From IMG/VR virus record IMGVR_UViG_3300026478_000263: a stretch of 64,000 bases of DNA. One strand, 5' to 3'. The notes below the pieces were generated by a model, which saw nothing but the letters and a program-made list of their open reading frames with translations, searched no databases and was not told where the DNA came from. This DNA is from a virus. Taxonomy: Duplodnaviria > Heunggongvirae > Uroviricota > Caudoviricetes. Both the position numbers and the translations under genes were made by a program. This document shows, piece by piece, positions 10,418 to 64,000 of this stretch (its first letter is position 1; every line of letters starts with the position of its first letter).

Positions 10418-10989
10418 TATCTGTATTTGGCAACGGCGAATCCAGAAAACATTTAGATTTAAATTCACTTACAGAAACTAAAGTTGGCTGTAACGCCATA
10501 CATAGAGACTACTCAGTCGACCATTTAGTCTGTGTAGACAGACGTATGGTACAAGAAGCACTGGATAGCCACTTTGCTGGCACAATCTATACTAGAAAAG
10601 ATTGGGCACACTTCTACAAAAACAATCCTGTAAAAATATTACCAGACTTGCCTTACCAGGGCACTACTAGACCTGACGAGCCTTTTCAATGGGGCAGTGG
10701 TCCGTATGCTGTTTTGTTAGCCGCTATGCTAGACGACCATGTAAACTTATTTGGTTTTGATCTACACAGCCCAACACAGTTTGTCAATAACATTTACAAA
10801 GATACTGCTAACTATGCAGATGCTACTAAACCCGCAGTGGATCCAAGGTATTGGATATACCAGATTGCTCGCGTGTTTGAATGTTTCCCCGATAAGTACT
10901 TTGTAGTTTTTAACAATACAGAATGGCAGATGCCCAGTAGTTGGCTTTTGGCAAATGTTAAATTCAAAACTATTGACAGTATAATGTAA
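10414..10989 (+). CDS. glycosyltransferase-like/Rossmann-like protein (start re-called to ATG 10414)
   Basis: ISVFGNGESR...VGCNAIHRD...DHLVCVD...LFGFDL pattern; ATGA overlap with upstream stop. Confidence 0.5.
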   Translation: MISVFGNGESRKHLDLNSLTETKVGCNAIHRDYSVDHLVCVDRRMVQEALDSHFAGTIYTRKDWAHFYKNNPVKILPDLPYQGTTRPDEPFQWGSGPYAVLLAAMLDDHVNLFGFDLHSPTQFVNNIYKDTANYADATKPAVDPRYWIYQIARVFECFPDKYFVVFNNTEWQMPSSWLLANVKFKTIDSIM

Positions 10990-11001
10990 TACCTATATAC
11001 T
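10973..11001 (+). promoter_or_regulatory. sigma70-type promoter for queD
   Basis: TTGACA(10973-10978)-17 nt-TATACT(10996-11001). Confidence 0.85.
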
Positions 11002-11009
11002 GTATCAAT

Positions 11010-11048
11010 AGAGGACTAGACGCTCACCCCTCTTTAAATACTCTGCGT
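11010..11048 (+). ncRNA. preQ1-I-like riboswitch aptamer (candidate) in the queD leader
   Basis: P1 AGAGG/CCUCU, loop ACUAGACGCUCACC, A/U-rich tail, pseudoknot ACGC/GCGU; starts at predicted +1 and precedes queD. Confidence 0.6.
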
Positions 11049-11079
11049 GTCATCAAACTTAACTTAAAAAGGGCAAGAG

Positions 11080-11637
11080 ATGACTTGGATCATTGATAAA
11101 ACATTTGAATTTTGTTATGGACATCGTGTTCATACACAAACACTAAACGGCGAATATGCGGCAGACTTGAAATGTGCTTGCAGACATTTACATGGACACG
11201 AAGGTAAAATGCAGGTTCATTTAACAGGCGACGGATTAGATAAAACTGGAATGGTCACTGACTTTAGACATTTAGAATGGCTAAAGAAATGGATCAACAC
11301 TTATATTGATCATCAATTTATTATTGATAAAAACGATCCGCTGTTTACTAAGATGCTGGGAGAAAAAGTCGAGCTAATTCCAGTGTATGTTCCAGAAACC
11401 GAATACGTTGCAGGTTGGCATATTCATCCAATCTATTATGCTAATATGTCTGGTCCTGAACAAGAATACTACGAAGGATTTATGGTAGTAGACTTTGTTC
11501 CAACATCGGAACACCTAAGTAGTTGGATGGCAGAATTAGTTGATGTCAAAATGAAAAAATTAGGCGTCAAAGTTCACAGCATCGAATGGTGGGAAACTCC
11601 TAAGAGTCGTAGTGTTTTTTATAAAGATGGTACGTAA
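11080..11637 (+). CDS. queD: 6-carboxy-5,6,7,8-tetrahydropterin synthase
   Basis: FEFCYGHR, CRHLHGH, GMVTDF, DHQFI, PTSEHL, WETPKS. Confidence 0.92.
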   Translation: MTWIIDKTFEFCYGHRVHTQTLNGEYAADLKCACRHLHGHEGKMQVHLTGDGLDKTGMVTDFRHLEWLKKWINTYIDHQFIIDKNDPLFTKMLGEKVELIPVYVPETEYVAGWHIHPIYYANMSGPEQEYYEGFMVVDFVPTSEHLSSWMAELVDVKMKKLGVKVHSIEWWETPKSRSVFYKDGT

Positions 11638-53997: not shown

Positions 53998-56667
53998 ATG
54001 AGTTACGTTGACGCTCTCTTTGACAGAGAGAATGATATTATTAAGGTCGTAGAGCGAAACGACCAAGGCGAACGGGTTTTCAAAGAACATCCTGTACGCT
54101 ACACGTTTTACTATCCGGATCAAAAAGGCAAGTTTACTAGCATTTACGGCGATCCGCTGACTAGGGTAGTTTGTAAAAACACCAAAGACTTTCGAAAAGA
54201 ATTAGCCATTAACAGTGGTAAGGACTTATACGAAAGCGACATCAATCCAATTTTTGTACATCTAAGCGAAAACTATCTAAATCAAGATGCACCTAATCTA
54301 AATATTTGCTTCTTCGACATTGAGGTGGACTTCGATCCAGAACGCGGCTATAGCACTCCTGAAGATGCGTTTATGCCAATTACTGCTATCACAGTTCACC
54401 TAAAATGGTTAGACAAATTAATTACACTGGCTCTTCCTCCAAAGACATTAACCTTTGCTGAAGCCGAAGCGTTAGTAGCCGATATTCCAGATACACATCT
54501 GTTTACTAATGAAGCAGATATGTTGGAAACATTCTTAGATTTAATTCAAGATGCAGACATTATCACAGGTTGGAACAGCGAAGGCTATGATATTCCTTAT
54601 ACTGTTAACCGTGTGACACAGGTGTTAAGTAAAGAAGATACAAGACGTTTCTGTCTATGGAATCAATTTCCTAAACGTAGAGAATATGAAAAGTATGGCA
54701 AGACTGCACAAACATATGACTTAATTGGTCGTGTACACTTAGACAGTCTAGAACTTTATCGCAAGTTTACCTACGAAGAACGACACACCTATCGATTAGA
54801 TGCCATCGGTGAAATGGAAATTGGCGAGAACAAAACTGTTTACGAAGGCACACTTGATCAACTATACAACAATGACTTTAAAAGATTTATTGTGTATAAC
54901 AGACAAGACGTTGCACTATTAAACAAACTAGATGAAAAACTTAAATTCATTGACCTTGCTAATAAAATTGCACATGAAAATACTGTATTATTACAGACTA
55001 CAATGGGTGCTGTGGCTGTTACCGAACAGGCTATTATTAACGAAGCGCATCGTAGAGGTTTCCAAGTTCCTAATCGTCCTAAACGAGATGACGATGAAAA
55101 TACTGCGGCTGCTGGTGCTTATGTAGCACATCCGAAAGAAGGTCTGCAAGATTGGATTGGATCGCTGGATATTAACAGTCTTTATCCAAGCGCCATTCGT
55201 GCGCTTAACATGGGTCCGGAAACTATTGTAGGTCAATTACGTCCTACAATGACAGAAGCATTTATCCATGAACAAATGACTCTTAAAAAGAAATCGTTTG
55301 CAGGCAGTTGGGAAGGCAAGTTTGGAACTGACGAATACGAAGCAGTTATGGCACAACGTAAAGATGTGGAAATTACCATAGACTGGGAAGATGGCAACAG
55401 TACTGTACACAGTGGTGCAGAAGTATATAAAGTTATTTTTGATAGTCATCAGCCTTGGATGCTTTCGGCAAATGGTACAATCTTTACCTACGAAAAGGAA
55501 GGTATTATTCCTGGACTGTTAAAGCGTTGGTATGCTGAACGTAAAGAAATGCAGGCCAAATTAAAAGAATGTATTCAGGCAGGTAACAAGGTCGAAGAAG
55601 AGTATTGGGATAAACGTCAGTTAGTTAAAAAGATTAACTTGAACAGTTTGTATGGTGCTATTCTTAACCCAGGTTGTAGATTCTTCGATAAACGTATTGG
55701 ACAGTCAACTACTCTAGTCGGTAGACAAATTGCCAAACACATGGCTAGTAAAGTAAATGAAATTATCACAGGTGAATACAATCACGTAGGTAAGGCAGTT
55801 ATCTATGGTGATACAGACTCTTGTTATTTCAGTGCATATACTACATTAAAGAAAGACATCGAATCTGGAGTTATTCCTTGGACTAAGGAAAACGTTACTG
55901 CACTCTATGACCAAATTGGCGAGGAAGTAAACAGTACATTCGTTAAGTTTATGGAGCAGGCATTTCATTGCCCGCCAAGTCGTGGTGATGTTATTCGAGC
56001 AGGTCGAGAAATTGTTGCTAGTAAAGGATTGTTTATTACTAAGAAACGTTATGCTGTACTTTACTATGATAAAGAAGGCAAACGTGCAGACGTAGATGGT
56101 AAACCAGGCAAGATCAAGGCCATGGGCTTAGACTTGAAGCGCAGTGATACTCCTGCATTTATTCAAGACTTTTTAAGTGATGTACTTGAGAAAGTTCTAA
56201 CTGGTGCTACAGAAGAACAAGTATTAGATCACATTACTCAATTCCGTACAGAGTTTAAGGCCCGTCCTGGTTGGGAGAAAGGTTCTCCTAAGCGAGCCAA
56301 CAACATTACTGAGTACGAAGCCAAAGAAAAGAAACAGGGCAAGGCTAATATGCCTGGACACGTTCGTGCAAGTATTAATTGGAATACTCTGCGTCGAATG
56401 AATTCGGACAAGTATAGTATGCAGGTCACAGACGGCCAAAAAGTTATTGTATGTAAACTCAAAGCAAATCCGCTAGGGTACACATCGGTAGCATATCCTG
56501 TAGACGAACTACGTTTGCCTAAATGGTTTATGGAACTTCCATTCGACGATGCAGAAATGGAACAAACTATTATAGATAACAAACTAGAAAACTTAATTGG
56601 AGTTCTTAACTGGGATATTAAATCCACAGAAGAAAAGAACACATTTAATCAACTGTTTGAGTTTTAA
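53998..56667 (+). CDS. polB: family B DNA polymerase (T4 gp43-like)
   Basis: Exo FDIE, GWNSEGYDIPY, YNRQD; Pol SLDINSLYPS, KKINLNSLYG, YGDTDS. Confidence 0.97.
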   Translation: MSYVDALFDRENDIIKVVERNDQGERVFKEHPVRYTFYYPDQKGKFTSIYGDPLTRVVCKNTKDFRKELAINSGKDLYESDINPIFVHLSENYLNQDAPNLNICFFDIEVDFDPERGYSTPEDAFMPITAITVHLKWLDKLITLALPPKTLTFAEAEALVADIPDTHLFTNEADMLETFLDLIQDADIITGWNSEGYDIPYTVNRVTQVLSKEDTRRFCLWNQFPKRREYEKYGKTAQTYDLIGRVHLDSLELYRKFTYEERHTYRLDAIGEMEIGENKTVYEGTLDQLYNNDFKRFIVYNRQDVALLNKLDEKLKFIDLANKIAHENTVLLQTTMGAVAVTEQAIINEAHRRGFQVPNRPKRDDDENTAAAGAYVAHPKEGLQDWIGSLDINSLYPSAIRALNMGPETIVGQLRPTMTEAFIHEQMTLKKKSFAGSWEGKFGTDEYEAVMAQRKDVEITIDWEDGNSTVHSGAEVYKVIFDSHQPWMLSANGTIFTYEKEGIIPGLLKRWYAERKEMQAKLKECIQAGNKVEEEYWDKRQLVKKINLNSLYGAILNPGCRFFDKRIGQSTTLVGRQIAKHMASKVNEIITGEYNHVGKAVIYGDTDSCYFSAYTTLKKDIESGVIPWTKENVTALYDQIGEEVNSTFVKFMEQAFHCPPSRGDVIRAGREIVASKGLFITKKRYAVLYYDKEGKRADVDGKPGKIKAMGLDLKRSDTPAFIQDFLSDVLEKVLTGATEEQVLDHITQFRTEFKARPGWEKGSPKRANNITEYEAKEKKQGKANMPGHVRASINWNTLRRMNSDKYSMQVTDGQKVIVCKLKANPLGYTSVAYPVDELRLPKWFMELPFDDAEMEQTIIDNKLENLIGVLNWDIKSTEEKNTFNQLFEF

Positions 56668-56671
56668 AGAC

Positions 56672-56700
56672 TTGACTTTGACCAAAAACCTAAATATAAT
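56672..56700 (+). promoter_or_regulatory. sigma70-type promoter
   Basis: TTGACT(56672-56677)-17 nt-TATAAT(56695-56700). Confidence 0.85.
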
Positions 56701-56721
56701 CAACATTAAGGAGAACTATAA

Positions 56722-57456
56722 ATGATTAAAGATATTCTAACCGACATCGTAGCACATACACATAGCCTAGGCTTTTTGCCTTTGGTAAAAATTACAGGTG
56801 CTAAAGATAGCACAACTATCGAATCAATGGCAGAGGATCGTAGCGTTATTGTTACTGCTACTGCACACAAGCCAGTATCAGAGTTTGATGGCACATTTGG
56901 TATGCCAAACTTGGACAAGTTAAATCTTCACTTGAAGAATCCAGAGTATAAAGAAAACGCAAAGATCGATGTAGTTACTGCGGAACGTAACGGCAACACA
57001 GTTCCAGTAGGTTTGCACTTTGAAAACCAAGCAGGTGACTTCCAAAACGATTATCGTTTCATGGCATCAGAACTTATTAACGAAAAACTAAAATCTGTTA
57101 AGTTCAAAGGTGCAACATGGGAAGTTGAGTTTGAACCAAGCATGGCGGCAATTGGTCGTTTGAAGTTACAAAGTGCGGCACACAGTGAAGAAACTGTTTT
57201 CCAAGTTCGTACAGAAGATAACAATCTTGTATTCTTCTTCGGTGATGCAAGTACACACGCAGGTTCTTTTGTATTCCAACACGATGTTGGCGGCAAGTTA
57301 AAGCACACATGGTCATGGCCTGTTGCACAAGTACAAAGCATTTTAAATCTCGATGGTAATATTACTATGAAGATTGCAGATGCAGGTGCTATGCAGATTA
57401 CTGTTGACAGCGGTGTTGCTGTATATGATTACATCTTGCCAGCACAGAGCAAATAA
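56722..57456 (+). CDS. probable sliding clamp (gp45-like)
   Basis: 244 aa, alpha/beta pattern, follows polB; clamp loader present in window; no diagnostic motif. Confidence 0.5.
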   Translation: MIKDILTDIVAHTHSLGFLPLVKITGAKDSTTIESMAEDRSVIVTATAHKPVSEFDGTFGMPNLDKLNLHLKNPEYKENAKIDVVTAERNGNTVPVGLHFENQAGDFQNDYRFMASELINEKLKSVKFKGATWEVEFEPSMAAIGRLKLQSAAHSEETVFQVRTEDNNLVFFFGDASTHAGSFVFQHDVGGKLKHTWSWPVAQVQSILNLDGNITMKIADAGAMQITVDSGVAVYDYILPAQSK

Positions 57457-57458
57457 TC

Positions 57459-57812
57459 ATGACTATTGAACAATTACTATACGCTAACATTGCCGCCGTA
57501 GTTTTATTGGTTATCGTTTATCATAGAACAGGTTGGCAAAAAGTTAAAGAATGCTACGGCATGTGGTTTACAAAAGAGTATTGGACTAATTATAATACTG
57601 TAGAATTTGTAAGTTGGTTTGCTAAGGCATTGATTATTGTGCCAGGATTAATCTTTGGCATTAGCCTTTGGTGGTTGTACTTTTTGACTTTGGCTACTAG
57701 TCTAGCATTAATTTGGGCCAGTAATAAAAAGTTTTTGCCAACTTTAGTAGGGTTTAATACTGTATGGACTTGGATTAGTTGTATGGTATTGGCACAGCAT
57801 TTAATAAAATGA
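57459..57812 (+). CDS. membrane protein
   Basis: several hydrophobic segments. Confidence 0.7.
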   Translation: MTIEQLLYANIAAVVLLVIVYHRTGWQKVKECYGMWFTKEYWTNYNTVEFVSWFAKALIIVPGLIFGISLWWLYFLTLATSLALIWASNKKFLPTLVGFNTVWTWISCMVLAQHLIK

Positions 57813-58033
57813 AACTATTTAATTGGAATCGTTACGAAACAATAACTGAAGGTCCAATGGCTCACGATTATACTAATGCGTCTGTTAGAAAAGAAATATA
57901 CGAGGCTTATAATAAGCGTTATAAAATTTCAGTAACTCCCCTGACGCATCCAGAGCATTATGATCCGTTGGATCCTCCGTTAGGCTGGGCTTACGACCCT
58001 TACTACGAAATTTGGATACAACTTAATGAATAA
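57809..58033 (+). CDS. hypothetical protein (start re-called to 57809)
   Basis: ATGA overlap with upstream stop. Confidence 0.6.
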   Translation: MKLFNWNRYETITEGPMAHDYTNASVRKEIYEAYNKRYKISVTPLTHPEHYDPLDPPLGWAYDPYYEIWIQLNE

Positions 58034-59573
58034 AAATTTAACCGCAACACAAAACGACTACGCATACTTTTTGCCGGCAACTAGCGGTTTCTATAGTACC
58101 TTTATAGGTAAACAAAGATATGGAAACTATGTTGATCCGGCAAGAGTTCCTGCTAGTTTTAAAAACGGAGTAGAAAGTCTAAACTACTTAGAACCGGAAA
58201 AAGGTGCGTTCTACTATGACCACTGCTTGTATAGTGCAGGTCATGCTAATCTAGACCTTAACAAAGTTGATCACAGCGAAGATATGTTTCGTAATAGAGA
58301 TCGCAGTACTAGTTGGGTACTAGGCGACTCCGGTGGTTTCCAAATTGGTAAAGGTGTATGGGAAGGCGATTGGAAGAATCCCAACTGTCCTAAAGCACAA
58401 AAGAAACGTGAACAGGTTCTTAAGTGGATGGATAGTCTAATGGACTATGGTATGTGTCTTGATATCCCTGCTTGGGTAGCTCGTAGCCCTGCTGGACAAA
58501 AAGCCACAGGCATTACTACATACGCAGAAGCAGTTCAAGGTACTTACATTAACAACGATTGGTTTGTAAACAATCGCAATGGTAATTGTAAATTCTTAAA
58601 CGTTCTCCAAGGTGAAAATCATACCGATGCAGACGATTGGTATGACCGAATGAAGAAGTACTGCGATCCTACTGTCTACGGTGACCGTGCATTTAACGGT
58701 TGGGCCATGGGTGGTCAGAATATGTGTGATGTACACTTGGTATTAAAACGCCTAGTAGCATTACGATTTGACGGATTACTTGAACAGGGCAAACAAGACT
58801 GGATGCACTTCTTAGGTACTAGTAAATTAGAGTGGGCTTGTTTATTAACAGACATTCAACGTGCTGTACGCAAGTATCACAATCCTAACTTTACAATTAG
58901 TTTCGACTGTGCTAGTCCATTCTTAGCAACTGCAAACGGACAAGTATACGTTCAAACAGAAACACAAGACAGAACTAAGTGGGTATATAGAATGTTACCT
59001 AGTATCGATAATAAAAAATATAGTAAAGATACTAGACTATTCCGCGATGCAGTAGTACAGGACGGACATTTTAAAAACTTTGACAATAGTCCAATTATTG
59101 ACGGGGTTCAAATTAAAGATGTTTGTATTTACGGGCCCGGGGATCTAAACAAGATTGGCAAGGAAGGTAAAACTTCGTGGGATAGTTTTAGTTACGCTAT
59201 CTTAATGGGCCATAATGTTTGGATGCACATTAATGCTGTACAAGAAGCCAATCGTCAATACGATTTGGGCATTGTTCCTGCTATGTTAGTAGAAGAACGG
59301 TTTGATAGACTATTCTTTAAAGATGTAGTAGAAGCCATTTTTGCTACTAGTAGTCGTGCAGAAGCAGACAAAGTCGTTGAAGAGTATAATAAATTTTGGC
59401 AAAGTATTATTGGAACTCGCGGAGCAGTAGGTAAGAAGACTGTAAACGCAAGTACACAATTTGCCAAACTGTTTGACGAAGTAGAGGAAGAGAGTGTACA
59501 ATTAGAGCACGGTGAAGAATTTACCGATGATGAAATTGCTAAACTTGACGAACTCGAAGAAGGCGTAAAATGA
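58026..59573 (+). CDS. tRNA-guanine transglycosylase-fold protein (TGT/DpdA-like)
   Basis: LGDSGGFQIG (58326-58343), CLDIP, NVLQG, GWAMGG, MHFLG, SFDCASP, GHN. Confidence 0.8.
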   Translation: MNKNLTATQNDYAYFLPATSGFYSTFIGKQRYGNYVDPARVPASFKNGVESLNYLEPEKGAFYYDHCLYSAGHANLDLNKVDHSEDMFRNRDRSTSWVLGDSGGFQIGKGVWEGDWKNPNCPKAQKKREQVLKWMDSLMDYGMCLDIPAWVARSPAGQKATGITTYAEAVQGTYINNDWFVNNRNGNCKFLNVLQGENHTDADDWYDRMKKYCDPTVYGDRAFNGWAMGGQNMCDVHLVLKRLVALRFDGLLEQGKQDWMHFLGTSKLEWACLLTDIQRAVRKYHNPNFTISFDCASPFLATANGQVYVQTETQDRTKWVYRMLPSIDNKKYSKDTRLFRDAVVQDGHFKNFDNSPIIDGVQIKDVCIYGPGDLNKIGKEGKTSWDSFSYAILMGHNVWMHINAVQEANRQYDLGIVPAMLVEERFDRLFFKDVVEAIFATSSRAEADKVVEEYNKFWQSIIGTRGAVGKKTVNASTQFAKLFDEVEEESVQLEHGEEFTDDEIAKLDELEEGVK

Positions 59574-59827
59574 AAAAACTACTAGGCATTGGTGTTTTAG
59601 CAGTATTAAGTTTTGGTTTGTTTTATAAAACGGCAGATGCCGTGGGTCCAAACGACTACTATCTTGTAATTAAATTTGCAGAAACTGGCAACACCATTGC
59701 CCTAGCAGATAAATTCAATGGGCACGAAGCCTGTGTATCCTCTCCGGATTATGCGCTACATCAATTAGCGGGCAAACAATCCGGATCTCTTATTAAATGT
59801 GTTAACGAACTACCAACATATAGATGA
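59570..59827 (+). CDS. small exported protein
   Basis: N-terminal signal/TM, Cys pair. Confidence 0.6.
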   Translation: MKKLLGIGVLAVLSFGLFYKTADAVGPNDYYLVIKFAETGNTIALADKFNGHEACVSSPDYALHQLAGKQSGSLIKCVNELPTYR

Positions 59828-60702
59828 AAAGTTTAGTTGTAGGAATGGGAATAGGACAGTTATATAAATCTGTCCTAACTCAATTAGGTTATGAAGTTTG
59901 TACTGTCGATACAGACATTAATAAAAATGCCGACTTCCCTAGTATAGAACCAGCCATATTACTTCACGGGTCTTTTGACACCGTACATATTTGCACACCA
60001 AATTTTACGCATTTAGAATTAGCCGTTAAACTGGCTCCTATCAGTAAAATTGTCTTTATTGAAAAGCCTGGACTGATTAATAGAAACGAATGGGCTAAAT
60101 TATGTAAAAGATTTCCACGCACACGATTTATGATGGTTAAAAATAATATGTGGCGTGACAATATTGCAGAATTACAGGAAAAGGCTAAAGTAGCAAAGAA
60201 TGTAGACATCGAATGGATTAGAAAGAACTGTATTCCTAGCCCAGGTAGTTGGTTTACTACACGCAAACTAGCATTTGGCGGAGTTAGTAGGGACTTAATG
60301 CCACACTTATTAAGTTTGTATATTGCACTACATCCAGACTGGCGCATAGAAAAAGTTAACGGCGAATCATCTATACAATCATGGCTGTTAAAAGATATCG
60401 AAAGCACAGAGTATGGTACTGTAAACCCAAATGGAACTTATGATGTAGACGACCAGTGTCACATTGGATTTGGTTCTAAATGGAACTGCCGTGCTAACTG
60501 GCGCAGTATGACTGTTGAACGTAGTGCTATTACATTTATTAATCAAGATAATACCAAAGATGTATTTGAGTTAGGCTGGTGTCCAGAAGAAGCGTACCTA
60601 AATATGATTAAAGATGCTGTAGAAAACCTAAATAATGACGAGTACTGGAAAGTACAGTTAGAAATTGACCTTTGGATACACGAAAGAATAGAAAAACTAT
60701 GA
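59824..60702 (+). CDS. Gfo/Idh/MocA-family oxidoreductase
   Basis: VVGMGIG, HICTPNFTH, VFIEKPG, GGVSRDLMPHLL. Confidence 0.85.
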   Translation: MKSLVVGMGIGQLYKSVLTQLGYEVCTVDTDINKNADFPSIEPAILLHGSFDTVHICTPNFTHLELAVKLAPISKIVFIEKPGLINRNEWAKLCKRFPRTRFMMVKNNMWRDNIAELQEKAKVAKNVDIEWIRKNCIPSPGSWFTTRKLAFGGVSRDLMPHLLSLYIALHPDWRIEKVNGESSIQSWLLKDIESTEYGTVNPNGTYDVDDQCHIGFGSKWNCRANWRSMTVERSAITFINQDNTKDVFELGWCPEEAYLNMIKDAVENLNNDEYWKVQLEIDLWIHERIEKL

Positions 60703-61589
60703 CACGCTGTCTACAAACAACTGGACAAGGTTACTTTGAAGAAGTAGAATATGCAAAGCCAGAACCTACGTCAACTGAAATTGAAGTTAAAGCAGTTATG
60801 ACTGGTGTATGTCGCAGTGACATAGATATGATGCAGGGCAACTTTGGACCTTTACCACTACACATGCAAGGTCACGAAGGTCTAGGAATCGTAACTAAAG
60901 TCGGTGCCAGTGTATTAGGTGTTAAAGTAGGCGATTATGTTGCTACCCGCGGCGAACCAGCATACGCAGATTATTACAACTGTCGTGACGGTGAGTTTGT
61001 AACAGTTTTAGAACTACATCCACGTTACATTTTAGAACCAGTGGCCTGTGGTGTTAACTGTATTAGACAAGCGTATACTCTTTTTGAACGTAGACAAAAT
61101 GGTAAATGCTTAATCCTAGGTAGTGGTTTCCTTGCATGGGTAGTTTTTAATAACCTGGCACATCATTTTCCAGAACTTGAAGTAGATGTACTAGGTTCTA
61201 GTAATCAGGAACTTTGGGGAGATGCGTTACTGTTAGGTACTACCGACAGTTACGATTTGATAGTAGATTTATCTGGAAAATATCAACTAGGTACCGACAT
61301 TAATCTAAATAACAATGCAGTAATCATTGATGCTGTTGGTAAAGCAGTAAGTAAAGAAGAAGCACAACAACAACTTTGGAAGGCTGTTACTACAGTTAAA
61401 CCAAGTCCAAGAACAGAAGAATTTATTGGTGCTATGTTTGAAGCACGTTGGATGATTGAAAACGGTAAACTAGAGGTTGATTCTTTCTGGACAAAAGGTT
61501 ATAATCGTAACACAGAATGGCAACAAGCATTTGCGGATGGTGTGGATCGTCCAAATGGTTATAGCAGAGGTTATATTAAATGGGATTAA
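60699..61589 (+). CDS. zinc-type medium-chain dehydrogenase (start re-called to 60699)
   Basis: GVCRSD, GHEGLGIVTKVG...VKVGDYV, LEPVACG, LILGSG. Confidence 0.85.
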   Translation: MTRCLQTTGQGYFEEVEYAKPEPTSTEIEVKAVMTGVCRSDIDMMQGNFGPLPLHMQGHEGLGIVTKVGASVLGVKVGDYVATRGEPAYADYYNCRDGEFVTVLELHPRYILEPVACGVNCIRQAYTLFERRQNGKCLILGSGFLAWVVFNNLAHHFPELEVDVLGSSNQELWGDALLLGTTDSYDLIVDLSGKYQLGTDINLNNNAVIIDAVGKAVSKEEAQQQLWKAVTTVKPSPRTEEFIGAMFEARWMIENGKLEVDSFWTKGYNRNTEWQQAFADGVDRPNGYSRGYIKWD

Positions 61590-62119
61590 ACACTGAAGAA
61601 AGACAAGACATTGTCTACTTTACAGGCTACGAAGTCGAACATACTATTTGCTATGGTATGTATACACTATTTGTAGTAGGCACTCCTCCGCTAGAAGAAA
61701 TACTACGTATTGCTGGTGACACACAAGCATACTTAGACGAAAACAAACGCATTAAACAAATTTACTTTGGCACTAGTCAAAGTTTTAATCCTAAAAGTAT
61801 TTCACACGAAGAATACAAAGCATGGGACGAAGTTATTATAGGCTGTCTAAAAGCAGGCTATTGGGTAGCTCTAGACTTTGGTGTTGAACACATCGAAGGC
61901 GTACTAGAGTCTGCTTATAACGAATATCCCAAGTTTGTACCTATGATTAGTGTCAAGTTACCCTACATTAATCAACTCAACTACAATGCCACACTCAAAC
62001 TGGATGACCGAACTTGGGGTGCTACAAATCCAGGTGTGTGGACACATCATTTACAAAGCCTAATGACTAAAGACAAGTATACTCATTGGGATTTGTACAC
62101 TCAAGATACACCAACATGA
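61580..62119 (+). CDS. hypothetical protein inside the modification cluster
   Basis: 179-aa ORF overlapping both neighbours. Confidence 0.75.
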   Translation: MGLNTEERQDIVYFTGYEVEHTICYGMYTLFVVGTPPLEEILRIAGDTQAYLDENKRIKQIYFGTSQSFNPKSISHEEYKAWDEVIIGCLKAGYWVALDFGVEHIEGVLESAYNEYPKFVPMISVKLPYINQLNYNATLKLDDRTWGATNPGVWTHHLQSLMTKDKYTHWDLYTQDTPT

Positions 62120-62511
62120 TTATCAAACAAGACATTAGACCAAACAAAATGATCTGGGTAACTTTCCGCAAAGAAGGTATCCATAAGTATCCTGCGGCAC
62201 TAACAGATCCTAATCTAGCAACAGGAGACGAATATGACGTATCGTTTTTGGGTCACCCTCATCGCCACATCTTTCATTTCAGGGTGTGGATCAGTGTGCA
62301 ACACAATGACAGGGACATCGAATTCATCCAATTCAAACGATGGCTCGAGTCGTTGTATAATGGTCAAGGTGCCACTATAAGCCTTGACTACAAGAGTTGT
62401 GAAATGATGTCTGACGAATTACATGACATCATTAGCAAGAAGTATCCAAATCGCGAGATTTGGATTGAGGTCTCCGAAGACGGAGAAAATGGTTCATTCA
62501 TCAAATACTAA
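62116..62511 (+). CDS. dpdL: QueD-like T-fold protein with LxxxHRHxF motif (DpdL-like; start re-called to 62116)
   Basis: EGIH, LGHPHRHIF (62248-62274), DIEF, SCE, VSEDGENG align to the QueD layout. Confidence 0.6.
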   Translation: MIIKQDIRPNKMIWVTFRKEGIHKYPAALTDPNLATGDEYDVSFLGHPHRHIFHFRVWISVQHNDRDIEFIQFKRWLESLYNGQGATISLDYKSCEMMSDELHDIISKKYPNREIWIEVSEDGENGSFIKY

Positions 62512-62519
62512 AGGAAACA

Positions 62520-62753
62520 ATGATGAAAAAAGAAGTCGTTCAAATTTTTGACGATCTTGACAATCTGCTAGATTTTTGCAGATTCAACCTTCTGCCTTAC
62601 AATGAGGCAGACTTGTATAACCGCCAAAGTAAAACTTGGCAGGCTTACGAGGCGTCTAAGCGTCCTCGTCGTTATAACAACGACAGACGATTTGAAAATC
62701 GTCCCCGTAATAACAACGGGTACAATAACAACTACAGGAATGGTCGCCAATGA
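62520..62753 (+). CDS. hypothetical protein with Arg/Asn-rich C-terminus
   Basis: 77-aa ORF, AGGA SD. Confidence 0.65.
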   Translation: MMKKEVVQIFDDLDNLLDFCRFNLLPYNEADLYNRQSKTWQAYEASKRPRRYNNDRRFENRPRNNNGYNNNYRNGRQ

Positions 62754-63823
62754 CCGTCTACTTAGTAGACCTTGAGCCGGTAGAAACACGCTATACAGCG
62801 CAGTGGAAGACCCACCTACCGGCTATCCTGAGAAAGAGAGGACACGATGTTCAAGTTTTATCTGGGCCTACGGATATTCCTTCAGCCACTACTCCTGGTG
62901 CTTTTCTTAATTTTGGTGGCACCAATATATACAAGTCTGCTCAAGTTGAGCAAATGGGTAGGTTGTTTTGCGCCGGATCAGTGGCTCCTAATGATCACTT
63001 CATCTTTACTGATGCTTGGCACCCTGGTATCATCAACCTAAAGTATATGAGTGAACTGTTACAGATTCCTGTAACTATTCACGCACTATGGCATGCCGGT
63101 AGTTACGATCCACAGGACTTTTTAGGTCGTCTAATTGGCGATGCTCCTTGGGTCAGAAATGCTGAAAAGAGTTTCTTTCATGCTATAGATCATAACTACT
63201 TTGCTACAACATTCCATATTGAAATGTTTTGTCATAATCTTTTAAACATAGATTACGATACTGCAAAAGCATCATATATCGATAAAGGAAAAATTGTACG
63301 CACAGGTTGGCCAATGGAGTATATGGAAGATACATTAACTCCATATAAAGGGATGAAAAAACGTGATTTAATTCTTTTCCCTCATCGCATCGCACCCGAG
63401 AAGCAAGTTGAAATTTTTAGAGATTTAAAAGAACACTTGCCACAGTACGAGTTCGTAGTCTGTCAGGATCAACAACTAACAAAAAATGAATATCATAACT
63501 TGTTAGGCGAATCGAAATTAGTGTTCTCTGCAAACTTACAAGAGACATTAGGGATTAGTTGGTATGAAGGCGCTGTTGTAGATGCTATTCCTATGGTGCC
63601 AGATAGACTTAGTTACAGTGAAATGGGCTATGATACTTTTAAGTATCCTAGTGAATGGACTGAAAGTTTCGAAGCATATAAAGCACACCGTCCAGAAATA
63701 TGTGCAAAGATTATCCAGTATATGGATAACTATGAAAAGTTTTTACCACAACTTAGAAAACAAACTCAAGACTTAACTGAAAATTTCTTTTCTGCAAATG
63801 GACTCTTAGAAAGACTTGTATGA
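62750..63823 (+). CDS. GT-B fold glycosyltransferase (GT4-like)
   Basis: FPHRIAPEK, E-x7-E motif QETLGISWYE, PMVPD. Confidence 0.8.
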   Translation: MTVYLVDLEPVETRYTAQWKTHLPAILRKRGHDVQVLSGPTDIPSATTPGAFLNFGGTNIYKSAQVEQMGRLFCAGSVAPNDHFIFTDAWHPGIINLKYMSELLQIPVTIHALWHAGSYDPQDFLGRLIGDAPWVRNAEKSFFHAIDHNYFATTFHIEMFCHNLLNIDYDTAKASYIDKGKIVRTGWPMEYMEDTLTPYKGMKKRDLILFPHRIAPEKQVEIFRDLKEHLPQYEFVVCQDQQLTKNEYHNLLGESKLVFSANLQETLGISWYEGAVVDAIPMVPDRLSYSEMGYDTFKYPSEWTESFEAYKAHRPEICAKIIQYMDNYEKFLPQLRKQTQDLTENFFSANGLLERLV

Positions 63824-64000
63824 TATTAAAACTGTTAGAACGTCTCGGTCGCAAGCGTATTATTATGGATCGTACCTGTGACGAGCCGTTACTTACACGT
63901 TATTATCTATTTTTAAAGGATCGTAAATGGTTTCCATTTAATGTATTCTTACACAAGTTTCATAAAGGTGATCCAGATGATGTGCATGATCACCCATGGC
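63820..64000 (+). CDS. partial ORF, possible cupin-like protein (runs off window)
   Basis: RYYLF...FLHKFHKGDPDDVHDHPW; ATGA overlap. Confidence 0.6.
   Translation, partial: MILKLLERLGRKRIIMDRTCDEPLLTRYYLFLKDRKWFPFNVFLHKFHKGDPDDVHDHPW

Follow-up and report, generated by a model that had tools for sequence, protein, structure and literature searches.

Does the run of genes that follows the DNA polymerase gene in this phage genome encode a new kind of DNA modification, or a known kind with additional parts? The window (the whole stretch of 64,000 nucleotides that was analyzed) belongs to a 270 kb record, ca. 71% complete, of an uncultured jumbo phage. A sequence-only reading had proposed a candidate new system, in which a transglycosylase, a DpdL-like protein, two sugar-type oxidoreductases and a glycosyltransferase would place a decorated deazaguanine in virion DNA. 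That parts list and the linkage of the glycosyltransferase withstood comparison with related loci; the newness of the system, the redox pair as a fixed component and a riboswitch did not. The gene content suggests a replication-linked DNA modification module of abundant uncultured jumbo phages that may produce a glycosylated deazaguanine with a lineage-specific sugar, and on this reading as a whole our judgment is evenly divided.

Gene order and borders

All of the ORFs listed in the earlier reading are real and found on the plus strand, with overlaps of 4 to 31 bases or short gaps between them, in the tight run directly after polB and a probable clamp that had been described. The upstream border of the module is a family B DNA polymerase (polB, 53998–56667, + strand), 47–49% identical to the polymerases of phages PA5oct and Phosso and located upstream of the transglycosylase-like gene in nearly all related loci. 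It is followed by a probable sliding clamp of 244 amino acids (56722–57456, +), which belongs to phrog_12062, a family of unknown function, and has a Phosso homologue (33% identity) annotated as a sliding clamp. The transglycosylase-like gene sits between these two genes and RNase H, and the surroundings of the module are replication genes, not structural or lysis genes.

A published 7-deazaguanine core

The gene at 58026–59573 (+) encodes a DpdA-like guanine transglycosylase of 515 amino acids with an acidic C-terminal tail. The protein has no match to the Pfam TGT family (PF01702), unlike 14 of 14 control genomes, each of which had one. Its AlphaFold2 model (pLDDT 89.7) has a confident TGT fold, as the earlier reading had supposed – the top PDB matches are all tRNA-guanine transglycosylases, with probability 1.00 and a TM of ca. 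0.5 by target, and the viral structure matches include a Vibrio phage nt-1 protein (R9TGF0) and a 259-amino-acid phiST protein, taken to be the phiST DpdA3. In an alignment of 51 homologues, Asp101 (in DSGGFQ), Asp146, Gly225 and Asp294 (FDC..P..NGQ) are invariant, the catalytic aspartates among them, and no conserved CxCxxC...H zinc motif was seen downstream of the nucleophile. Profile comparison with hhalign gave 96.5% probability against the 424-amino-acid TGT-like protein of ACP17, and 75% over 82 columns against the phiST protein.

The identification of a QueD paralogue with the LxxxHRHxF motif as DpdL was borne out. This protein (141 amino acids; 62086–62511, +, probable start ATG at 62122; phrog_17812) carries LGHPHRHIF, matching the signature by which DpdL is defined (PMC10516641), and is 57% identical to the DpdL of ACP17 and 34% to that of phiST. 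The canonical QueD (CPH4 synthase) reported at 11 kb is present as a CxxxHGH protein at 11080–11637 (+; PF01242, 93.9 bits; phrog_2389; TIGR03367). The riboswitch-like leader that had been described there is without support, as an Rfam scan ahead of queD found no preQ1 or other riboswitch. Of the precursor genes sought beyond the window, folE lies 2.5 kb past its end (PF01227, E 1.4e-38) and a gene for a QueE-like radical SAM protein 4.1 kb past it (phrog_2076, E 2e-54), while no canonical QueC was found in the ca. 71% complete record. A divergent QueC-like PP-loop protein is encoded elsewhere in the genome and could shift the chemistry of the base. An XGPRT-like purine phosphoribosyltransferase is encoded within 5 kb past the window end and, together with a HIT-family protein, lies between the glycosyltransferase and FolE.

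With DpdL, a TGT fold, FolE, QueE and QueD all present, the core is a system that Cui et al. (2023, PMC10516641) have already described, the DpdL-type 7-deazaguanine DNA system without QueC, and so is not new. Both have FolE, QueD, QueE, an LxxxHRHxF DpdL and a DNA transglycosylase of the TGT superfamily, and neither has a canonical QueC. For ACP17 and PA5oct, relatives that belong to the published system, modification of G was already known or suspected. The differences are that the transglycosylase of the window is a longer, divergent clade, and that the published scheme is without the GT4 glycosyltransferase, p179, the Gfo/ADH pair, the cupin, the phosphoribosyltransferase and the HIT protein. 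No glycosyltransferase is mentioned anywhere in the text of PMC10516641, and no description of a sugar-bearing deazapurine of this kind was found in the literature.

A glycosyltransferase locked into the module

The earlier call of a GT-B glycosyltransferase holds for the gene at 62750–63823 (+), which encodes a GT4-like (retaining GT-B) protein. The EX7E motif (E265..E273) is invariant among homologues. Weak PF00534 matches were found in 9 of 17 homologues, with the window protein itself under the Pfam threshold, and ESM feature neighbors carry Glycos_transf_1. Close homologues are named glycosyltransferase by JGI, and those of PAC2 and Phosso are named GT4 or glycosyltransferase in GenBank; a profile search against PDB sequences did not retrieve any glycosyltransferase.

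GT4 is a core partner of DpdL. It accompanies DpdL in all 43 of the long related loci, and both there and in 6–7 cultured phage groups (including PA5oct-like phages, ACP17, Phosso, BUDD/X1, BCSR5 and BUCT-ZZ01) it adjoins DpdL or lies within ca. 3 kb of it, on different backbones and with different types of DpdA. In ACP17, homologues of p179 and GT4 flank the TGT-like gene just upstream of DpdL. Sister lineages have other sugar-tailoring genes beside GT4: an SDR 4,6-dehydratase/epimerase with a DegT aminotransferase and a B12 radical SAM enzyme, or a UDP-glucose dehydrogenase. No NDP-sugar pyrophosphorylase or SDR epimerase was found in the ca. 71% complete record.

An exchangeable redox cassette

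The two sugar-type oxidoreductases proposed earlier were confirmed by family and by invariant active-site residues. The first is an NAD(P)-dependent Gfo/Idh/MocA protein of 292 amino acids (59824–60702, +; PF01408), in which GxGxG, EKP and D157-x3-H161 are invariant among homologues. The second (60672–61589, +; ADH_N, PF08240) is a zinc-type medium-chain dehydrogenase of 305 amino acids from TTG at 60672, or 296 from ATG at 60699. Its Cys38, His59, Glu60 and E113..C117, among them the residues that bind the catalytic zinc, do not vary between homologues, and the sequences show no sign of a structural zinc lobe with 4 Cys. The best solved relative of the Gfo/Idh/MocA protein is the glycoside 3-oxidoreductase DgpA (E 2.6e-7 over residues 45–218). 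DgpA-type enzymes of gut bacteria (PDB 7xr9, 9m37) oxidize a hydroxyl of a sugar that is already joined to an aromatic aglycone. Similarity is low, however, and the phage protein is ca. 70 residues shorter and has no DgpB/C-type partner.

The third gene of the cassette encodes p179, a conserved protein of 179 amino acids (61580–62119, +) that is another core partner of DpdL, present in all 43 long loci and in PA5oct and ACP17. Its AlphaFold2 model (pLDDT 84) does not clearly match any fold; of the named neighbors QueE comes nearest, at noise level, and hhalign against QueE was negative. There are two types of p179. Type A forms one clade, includes the window protein and occurs with Gfo/ADH in 24 of 24 cases, against 0 of 47 for the other. 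The Gfo gene was found in 25 related loci, each time with the dehydrogenase, and the pair in 18 of the 43 long loci, always with its own type of p179. Gfo, ADH and p179 form a three-gene cassette that has moved between backbones, and the redox pair is accessory and exchangeable rather than a fixed part, though the co-variation with p179 could come from physical linkage alone. The glycosyltransferase co-occurs with the transglycosylase throughout the 43 long loci, and the redox pair does so in those 18 and in cultured PA5oct-like phages.

PA5oct and other members of Wroclawvirus (MIJ3, Callisto, Paride and others) have the same order of polB, clamp-like, TGT-like, GT4, DpdL, phosphoribosyltransferase-like, QueE and RNase H genes, with identities of PA5oct to the window of 33% (TGT-like), 41% (GT4, EST35_0317) and 54% (DpdL). 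PA5oct also has a contiguous trio of Gfo (EST35_0362, 34%), ADH (EST35_0363, 38%) and p179 (EST35_0364, 41%), but ca. 26 kb from the transglycosylase locus, whereas the trio of the window lies inside it. Neither PA5oct locus showed a homologue of the cupin or of the HIT protein. PA5oct DNA resists restriction enzymes with G in their sites and is a target of modified-G-specific nucleases (PMC12191111); no publication was found that gives the chemical identity of this base.

Proposed pathway and alternatives

In the proposed pathway, FolE, QueD and QueE would convert GTP to 7-carboxy-7-deazaguanine, which the DpdL-family protein, possibly with the assistance of p179, would turn into a 7-deazaguanine-type base. 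The decarboxylation role of DpdL is putative; E. coli expressing DpdA and DpdL made no dDG (PMC10516641). The divergent transglycosylase would exchange guanine in phage DNA for the base, and GT4 would then attach a sugar to that base. The redox pair may remodel the sugar or its donor, oxidizing it and then reducing it again as in an epimerization, and the phosphoribosyltransferase would most simply recycle excised guanine to GMP for FolE. Since the glycosyltransferase and redox pair are built into a deazaguanine gene set, the DNA may hold a sugar-bearing purine. There is a likeness of logic to the glucosyl-hydroxymethylcytosine of T-even phages, in which the base is altered first, a GT-B enzyme then adds sugar to the DNA in the major groove, and the sugar varies by lineage under host-defense pressure. 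The T-even base differs in being a pyrimidine whose hydroxymethyl group accepts the sugar; it is synthesized at the nucleotide level, ahead of replication, and glycosylated by another GT family. No evidence was found for the cyclitol decoration that had also been suggested.

The most serious alternative, possible but rather unlikely, is plain 2'-deoxy-7-deazaguanosine; GT4, p179, the cupin and the redox enzymes would then act on some other acceptor, for instance a phage protein, a small metabolite or a sugar of the host envelope, and have no more than an early/replication operon in common with the deazaguanine genes. GT4 enzymes usually make O-glycosides, and there is no obvious hydroxyl on plain 7-deazaguanine to accept a sugar. 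phiST, the sole DpdL phage with a measured base in PMC10516641, has no GT4 and all of its G is plain dDG; a GT homologue was not detected in 6 of 13 cultured DpdL phage groups; and the PA5oct trio is distant from its transglycosylase. The constant proximity of GT4 to DpdL, the confinement of p179 relatives to DpdL modules in homologue searches, and the replication setting argue for glycosylation of the base instead.

It is improbable that the XGPRT-like enzyme makes a deazaguanine nucleotide that the polymerase incorporates, with the HIT protein and others editing the pool and the TGT-like protein in a side role. Toyocamycin-type deazapurine nucleoside pathways follow such logic, 36 of the 43 long loci retain the phosphoribosyltransferase, and in phiST the neighbors of DpdL include MazG and a kinase-like ATPase. 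Nevertheless, the transglycosylase is universal in the long loci with all catalytic residues kept, the record yielded neither a dGTP-specific hydrolase nor MazG, salvage of excised guanine explains the phosphoribosyltransferase equally well, and the known phage deazaguanines are all placed after replication by DpdA (PMC10516641).

A queuosine-like base in tRNA, for example the phage's own, with DNA untouched, would suit the fold and is very improbable: the PF01702 match and zinc motif are missing, the gene lies among replication genes, PA5oct DNA has modified G (PMC12191111), and the partners of DpdL described so far belong to DNA systems only (PMC10516641).

A second glycosylated base, of the hydroxymethylated pyrimidine type on which the known phage DNA glucosyltransferases (GT-B enzymes acting on hydroxymethylcytosine) work, is hardly credible, since GT4 follows DpdL and no pyrimidine gene, the sole ThyA-family gene in the 270 kb record adjoins DHFR and encodes a canonical thymidylate synthase (its score of 376 bits exceeds the equivalog cut-off), and neither ThyX nor a hydroxymethyl-pyrimidine pathway was found, though at ca. 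71% completeness the absence of a hydroxymethylase is not proven.

Other genes in the run

Two ORFs had not been listed before, and neither has a match in family searches. One (59570–59827, +), of 85 amino acids with a signal-peptide-like N-terminus, is found in just 2 of 80 related loci and is probably a passenger. The other encodes a basic, Asn-rich protein of 77 amino acids between DpdL and GT4 (62520–62753, +) and is kept in 39 of the 43 long loci. The cupin-like partial ORF at the end of the window (63820–64000, +) was confirmed as a 3-His cupin; it runs 275 bases past the end, and the full ORF of 151 amino acids (L001:17922-18377, – strand) matches phrog_4786 (E 4.6e-35) and has counterparts in 32 of the 43 long loci.

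Organization of the gene run

The source record is 270 kb long with an estimated completeness of about 71%, the window corresponds to the minus strand of its contig C1 at 157196–221195, and the gene run described here occupies the last 6 kb of the window. As read from the ORFs, this run is tightly packed and co-directional (+ strand) and starts after polB (53998–56667), its upstream border, and a clamp-like gene (56722–57456). It consists of a gene for a 515-aa protein with a TGT fold (TGT-like; 58026–59573), an 85-aa ORF, genes for a Gfo/Idh/MocA protein (59824–60702) and a zinc MDR dehydrogenase (ADH; 60672–61589 or 60699–61589, there being two candidate starts), a gene for a 179-aa protein with no family assigned (p179; 61580–62119), a 141-aa QueD paralogue (62086–62511 or 62122–62511, again with two candidate starts), a 77-aa ORF, a 357-aa GT4-type protein (GT4; 62750–63823) and a cupin that begins at 63820 and extends beyond the window end. 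Every ORF that the sequence-only reading had placed after polB and the clamp is present, in the same direction and as closely packed as it described. Within the run Pfam recognized only the two oxidoreductases; PHROGs further identified the QueD paralogue (phrog_17812) and the cupin (phrog_4786). A megablast search of 56000–64000 against phage records found no match.

The DpdA-like transglycosylase

An AlphaFold2 model of the TGT-like protein, built on 51 homologues of 26–94% identity, had a pLDDT of 89.7 and a pTM of 0.90. Its best 50 matches in the PDB were all tRNA-guanine transglycosylases, each with a probability of 1.00, and the modelled fold is a TGT-type (beta/alpha)8 barrel. Four residues are invariant or nearly so in the 51 sequences, down to 26% identity – D101 (in VLGDSGGFQ), D146, G225 and D294 (in FDCASPF...NGQ). 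By motif comparison D101, D146 and D294, which we take to correspond to Asp102, Asp156 and Asp280 of Z. mobilis, would be the acid/base, guanine-binding and nucleophile Asp of TGT, respectively. Model, PDB matches and catalytic residues thus agree with the TGT fold first proposed from the sequence, and on its predicted structure the protein is a TGT-superfamily enzyme.

PF01702 did not match the TGT-like protein, nor did PF20314 (DUF6610, the DpdA4 marker) at E ≤ 0.01, and a PDB sequence search gave nothing useful. A search of the whole record with PF01702 found no match at E ≤ 1, although every one of the 14 control genomes gave one. Among the viral models matched by the TGT-like protein are one from Vibrio phage nt-1, a phage with a tested DpdA2, and a phiST protein of 259 aa, the former being structurally nearer (E 1e-9 against 3.5e-4). 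In hhalign comparisons the probability was 96.5% against the 424-aa TGT-like protein that phage ACP17 encodes beside its DpdL, and 75%, with a partial and weak alignment, against the 259-aa phiST protein (taken as the phiST DpdA3). On these comparisons the protein appears to belong to a separate, long DpdA-like clade, not firmly placed within DpdA1–4. The replication-gene context and the G-modified DNA of phage PA5oct point indirectly to DNA, not tRNA, as its substrate.

At its C-terminus (residues 465–515, window 59420–59573) the TGT-like protein is first disordered and then forms a strongly acidic helix (EEESVQLEHGEEFTDDEIAKLDELEEG). This tail could dock the enzyme to the replisome or to a DNA-binding partner.

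Precursor genes and the DpdL-type core

The sequence past the window end encodes an XGPRT-like phosphoribosyltransferase, a HIT protein, FolE, a QueE-like radical SAM protein, a 2OG-Fe(II) oxygenase and a 5'-3' exonuclease/RNase H. The precursor genes folE and queE, which the sequence-only reading had expected to lie beyond the window, are thus both found, starting 2.45 kb and 4.1 kb past its end. The canonical queD it had noted at 11 kb is also present (11080–11637, with CxxxHGH). The riboswitch-like leader proposed for that gene is without Rfam support: 10973–11082 had no match at the gathering score, 10700–11200 had none at E ≤ 1 and no preQ1 riboswitch, and no Rfam family was found across the window.

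No canonical QueC was found in the record, the best PF06508 match (18.7 bits) being below the cut-off. Elsewhere on contig C1 a gene (C1:36756–37355, +; positions 1069–1668 of locus L004) encodes a PP-loop ATPase of 199 aa that is divergent in sequence, contains SGGLDS and has CGRCDTC at its C-terminal end. It is QueC-like in PHROGs (phrog_1550, E 1e-18) and far below the Pfam and NCBIfam QueC cut-offs. Some 120 kb separate this gene from the deazaguanine module, and it has no counterpart in PA5oct, ACP17 or Phosso; since it is not shared with these cultured relatives, it was not counted in the pathway.

In DpdL, the proposed 7-carboxy-7-deazaguanine (CDG) decarboxylase, LxxxHRHxF replaces the CxxxHGH of QueD (PMC10516641). 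The motif in the window is LGHPHRHIF. L55, H59, H61 and F63 are invariant in 17 aligned sequences that include the phiST and ACP17 DpdL, and R60 is kept in all of these rows except PA5oct (HFH). Identity by tblastn is 57% to the ACP17 DpdL (E 4e-36) and 34% to that of phiST (E 5e-9). The sequence-only reading had taken the motif as a mark of DpdL, and both the published signature and the homology to named DpdLs bear this out: judged by sequence, the 141-aa QueD paralogue is a DpdL, with CDG decarboxylation as its proposed role. By the signature and these identities the core is most probably the published QueC-less, DpdL-type system, not the new system for which it had been put forward as a candidate.

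Expression of DpdA and DpdL alone in E. coli gave no 2'-deoxy-7-deazaguanosine (dDG), leaving the decarboxylase activity unproven, and Cui et al. suspected "other unknown enzymes"; in phiST DNA, dDG replaces all G (PMC10516641). The module described here very probably puts a 7-deazaguanine-type base into phage DNA. For its phosphoribosyltransferase the simplest role is salvage of the guanine excised in base exchange; the main mechanistic rival is a route to the modified base at the nucleotide level.

The 2OG-Fe(II) oxygenase (PF13640) lies directly after QueE, at L001:12513–13196 (-) in the locus that continues the window, or C1:151512–152195. It is almost unique to the source genome, with one partial match among 80 related loci.

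A putative glycosyltransferase linked to the transglycosylase

The 357-aa protein has an EX7E motif, E265-TLGISWY-E273, in its C-terminal domain, and both Glu and most of the residues between them are invariant in 17 homologues. PF00534 (Glycos_transf_1) did not match it at E ≤ 1; weak matches occur in 9 of the 17 homologues, the best (E 0.004) below the gathering score. Among its language-model (ESM-feature) neighbours 29–100% of members carry PF00534, and its close homologues are named glycosyltransferase or GT4 by JGI and GenBank. A PDB search with the GT4 sequence profile gave nothing useful. Taken together, the motif and these relatives identify the protein as a putative GT4-type glycosyltransferase.

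Linkage was assessed in 80 related viral loci with TGT-like proteins of 64–85% identity, onto which all proteins of the module were mapped. Counts were restricted to the 43 loci that extend 5 kb or more beyond the TGT-like gene on its downstream side. Both p179 and GT4 are found in all 43, followed by DpdL (42), the 77-aa ORF (39), FolE (37), the phosphoribosyltransferase (36) and the cupin (32), while the Gfo and ADH pair is found in 18. The expectation that glycosyltransferase and redox genes would co-occur with the transglycosylase therefore holds in full for the former and only in part for the latter. Homologue searches returned at least 7,982 (TGT-like) and at least 8,000 (GT4) significant protein clusters at 90% identity, and the carriers of the module are a very abundant group of aquatic jumbo phages.

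Thirty-six related loci encode a protein of about 200 aa after GT4 (e.g. L075:11618–12223). It is absent from the source genome, where the cupin directly follows GT4 (63823/63820 junction) with no such gene between them.

The module in cultured phages

A GT4 homologue adjoins DpdL or lies within about 3 kb of it in the PA5oct-like phages, ACP17, Phosso, Xanthomonas BUDD/X1, Burkholderia BCSR5 and Synechococcus BUCT-ZZ01. The PA5oct-like jumbo phages of Pseudomonas have polB and a clamp-like gene followed, in shared order, by TGT-like (33% identity), GT4 (41%), DpdL (54%), a phosphoribosyltransferase-like gene, QueE and RNase H. PA5oct DNA behaves as G-modified, with no chemical identity of the base given (PMC12191111). 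ACP17 encodes in a row a p179-like protein, the TGT-like protein, a GT4 homologue (36%), DpdL and QueE. In Phosso the order is clamp, a 178-aa gene annotated as a glycosylase, DpdL, glycosyltransferase (49%) and FolE; the 178-aa gene had no tblastn match to p179.

GT4 was not detectable in the DpdL phages phiST-like, RHph_I1_18, Ahp1, Bakedbeans, D479 and MA9V-3. Phage phiST thus has DpdL, dDG and no detectable GT4, whereas the module in the window has a GT4. The text of the paper describing DpdL never mentions a glycosyltransferase (PMC10516641).

The redox pair and p179

The Gfo/Idh/MocA protein matches PF01408 at 25.8 bits (cut-off 24), and G7-M-G9-x-G11, E80-K81-P82 and D157...H161 (D-x3-H) are invariant in 15 sequences. 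The dehydrogenase has a GroES-like domain (PF08240, E 5e-12). Its catalytic zinc ligands (C38, H59, E60, E113 and C117) and the G141-S-G143 of its cofactor loop do not vary across 15 sequences, and no four-Cys structural zinc lobe can be seen in its sequence. Both families are those named at the outset, with catalytic residues intact. Among proteins of solved structure, DgpA, which oxidises the sugar of an aryl glycoside, is the best relative of the Gfo protein (E 2.6e-7).

Gfo and ADH were never found apart, and they always lie between the TGT-like gene and p179 (25 loci). There are two types of p179. The type in the window (at least 50% identity) was found in 24 of 24 cases with the redox pair versus 0 of 47 without it, and the 24 pair-linked sequences cluster as a single clade in the p179 tree (SH-aLRT 99). 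The redox-pair trait requires three or more changes on the TGT-like tree. The single p179 clade and these repeated changes identify Gfo-ADH-p179 as a unit that has been exchanged between backbones. Co-variation within the metagenomic set could still reflect linkage alone. In the PA5oct-like phages a contiguous trio, EST35_0362–0364 (34, 38 and 41% identity), lies about 26 kb from the transglycosylase locus, and this separate location speaks for a unit kept together for its function, not simply for its position beside the TGT-like gene. A complex prediction for Gfo, ADH and p179 scored 0.00, which says nothing either way on binding.

The p179 model is of fair quality (pLDDT 84), and the protein has an invariant acidic cluster (E18, E20, D99, D142 and D143). 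Foldseek against the PDB found nothing at E ≤ 0.001, the AFDB clusters held one unnamed homologue only, and a PDB sequence search with the p179 profile gave nothing useful. In a wider structure search and the Atlas, QueE was among the best named neighbours (Z 6.3, TM 0.58), at the stated noise level. Since hhalign against the phage QueE family also gave a probability of only 0.1%, p179 is not called a QueE paralogue. Together with GT4, p179 is a candidate for the "other unknown enzymes" suspected by Cui et al. (PMC10516641).

Sugar genes in sister loci

Other loci carry different sugar genes around the same GT4. In a clade of five (L036, L050, L062, L064 and L066) a DegT-type aminotransferase directly follows GT4. 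The three that are annotated in full, L062, L064 and L066, also encode a radical SAM protein – B12-binding in L062 and L064, plain in L066 – and L062 and L064 encode an SDR NDP-sugar 4,6-dehydratase/epimerase. These sets (L064:9468–12767, L062:11838–15128 and L066:13862–16366), in which the DegT/DnrJ/EryC1-like ORF is only about 200 aa, look like deoxy-amino-sugar tailoring sets. In three further loci a UDP-glucose/GDP-mannose dehydrogenase lies just before FolE (L014:9356–10198, L011:11642–12451 and L033:15951–16742). Variable sugar tailoring around a constant GT4 is expected if GT4 transfers a sugar that is itself under diversifying selection.

A double 2OG oxygenase occurs in seven related loci. 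In two loci the Gfo/ADH slot upstream of p179 holds a gene of the flavin-dependent halogenase family (PF04820; the L043 gene scores 332 bits), either right after the TGT-like gene (L018:6918–8138) or after the Gfo/ADH pair (L043:12704–14245).

Possible nature of the modified base

The conserved linkage suggests that GT4 adds a sugar to the modified base and that the redox pair re-tailors this sugar, a combination to which we would give about an even chance. DpdL-type chemistry would free the C7 side of the deazapurine, and GT4 would then attach a sugar at C7, perhaps forming a C-glycoside with the pyrrole carbon, which is electron-rich. The redox pair and its matched p179 would re-tailor the attached sugar by oxidation and then re-reduction. 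Lineages would differ in their sugars through exchangeable cassettes: the redox trio, the UDP-sugar dehydrogenase, or the dehydratase, aminotransferase and B12 radical SAM set. The complete reading, a glycosylated 7-deazaguanine in virion DNA with all of these features, in source-type phages as well as the cultured PA5oct-likes, ACP17 and Phosso, is tentative and falls somewhat short of an even chance.

Plain 7-deazaguanine has no hydroxyl acceptor, and the reading would therefore require a glycoside of the C or N type, or some other product of DpdL. No hydroxymethyl-pyrimidine acceptor is apparent: the sole ThyA-family gene in the record (about 71% complete) is a canonical thymidylate synthase adjoining dihydrofolate reductase, and ThyX was not found; MazG was not found in the record either. 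The record yielded neither an NDP-sugar pyrophosphorylase (NTP_transferase) nor an SDR epimerase, and the host would therefore have to supply the donor sugar. In all eight published phage 7-deazaguanine DNA bases the C7 substituents are small or absent (PMC10516641). A literature search whose coverage left out most subscription journals found no glycosylated deazaguanine. The sugar decorations of DNA that we know of are on pyrimidines.

If this reading is true, the base would be the first sugar-bearing purine known in DNA and would parallel, on a purine, the diverse sugars that T-even phages carry on hydroxymethylcytosine. The linkage of GT4 to DpdL-type genes in abundant jumbo phages and several cultured ones predicts a new class of DNA base. 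A sugar-bearing base would explain why DpdA and DpdL failed in E. coli (PMC10516641), and would identify the modified G through which modification-dependent END nucleases attack PA5oct DNA. That the sugar cassettes are exchangeable suggests an arms race in which the sugar is the contested feature, with consequences for defences by restriction, CRISPR and glycosylases, for sequencing DNA of this kind and for the use of PA5oct-like phages in therapy. The question of a glycosylated base is open to mass spectrometry on phages already cultured.

The thymidylate synthase/dihydrofolate reductase pair lies 13 kb downstream of GT4 (L001:4363–5683, -; C1:143362–144682), and T4-like phages likewise have such a pair. 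The p179 family is confined to this module: in the genome collection all its relatives occur on phage-like MAG contigs with an unchanged gene order, and so give no independent cellular context. Contigs with the module (L090–L100) have been binned into MAGs assigned to Methanobacteriota, Pacearchaeota, Neomarinimicrobiota, Haliscomenobacter and others, probably through mis-binning of phage sequence as cellular.
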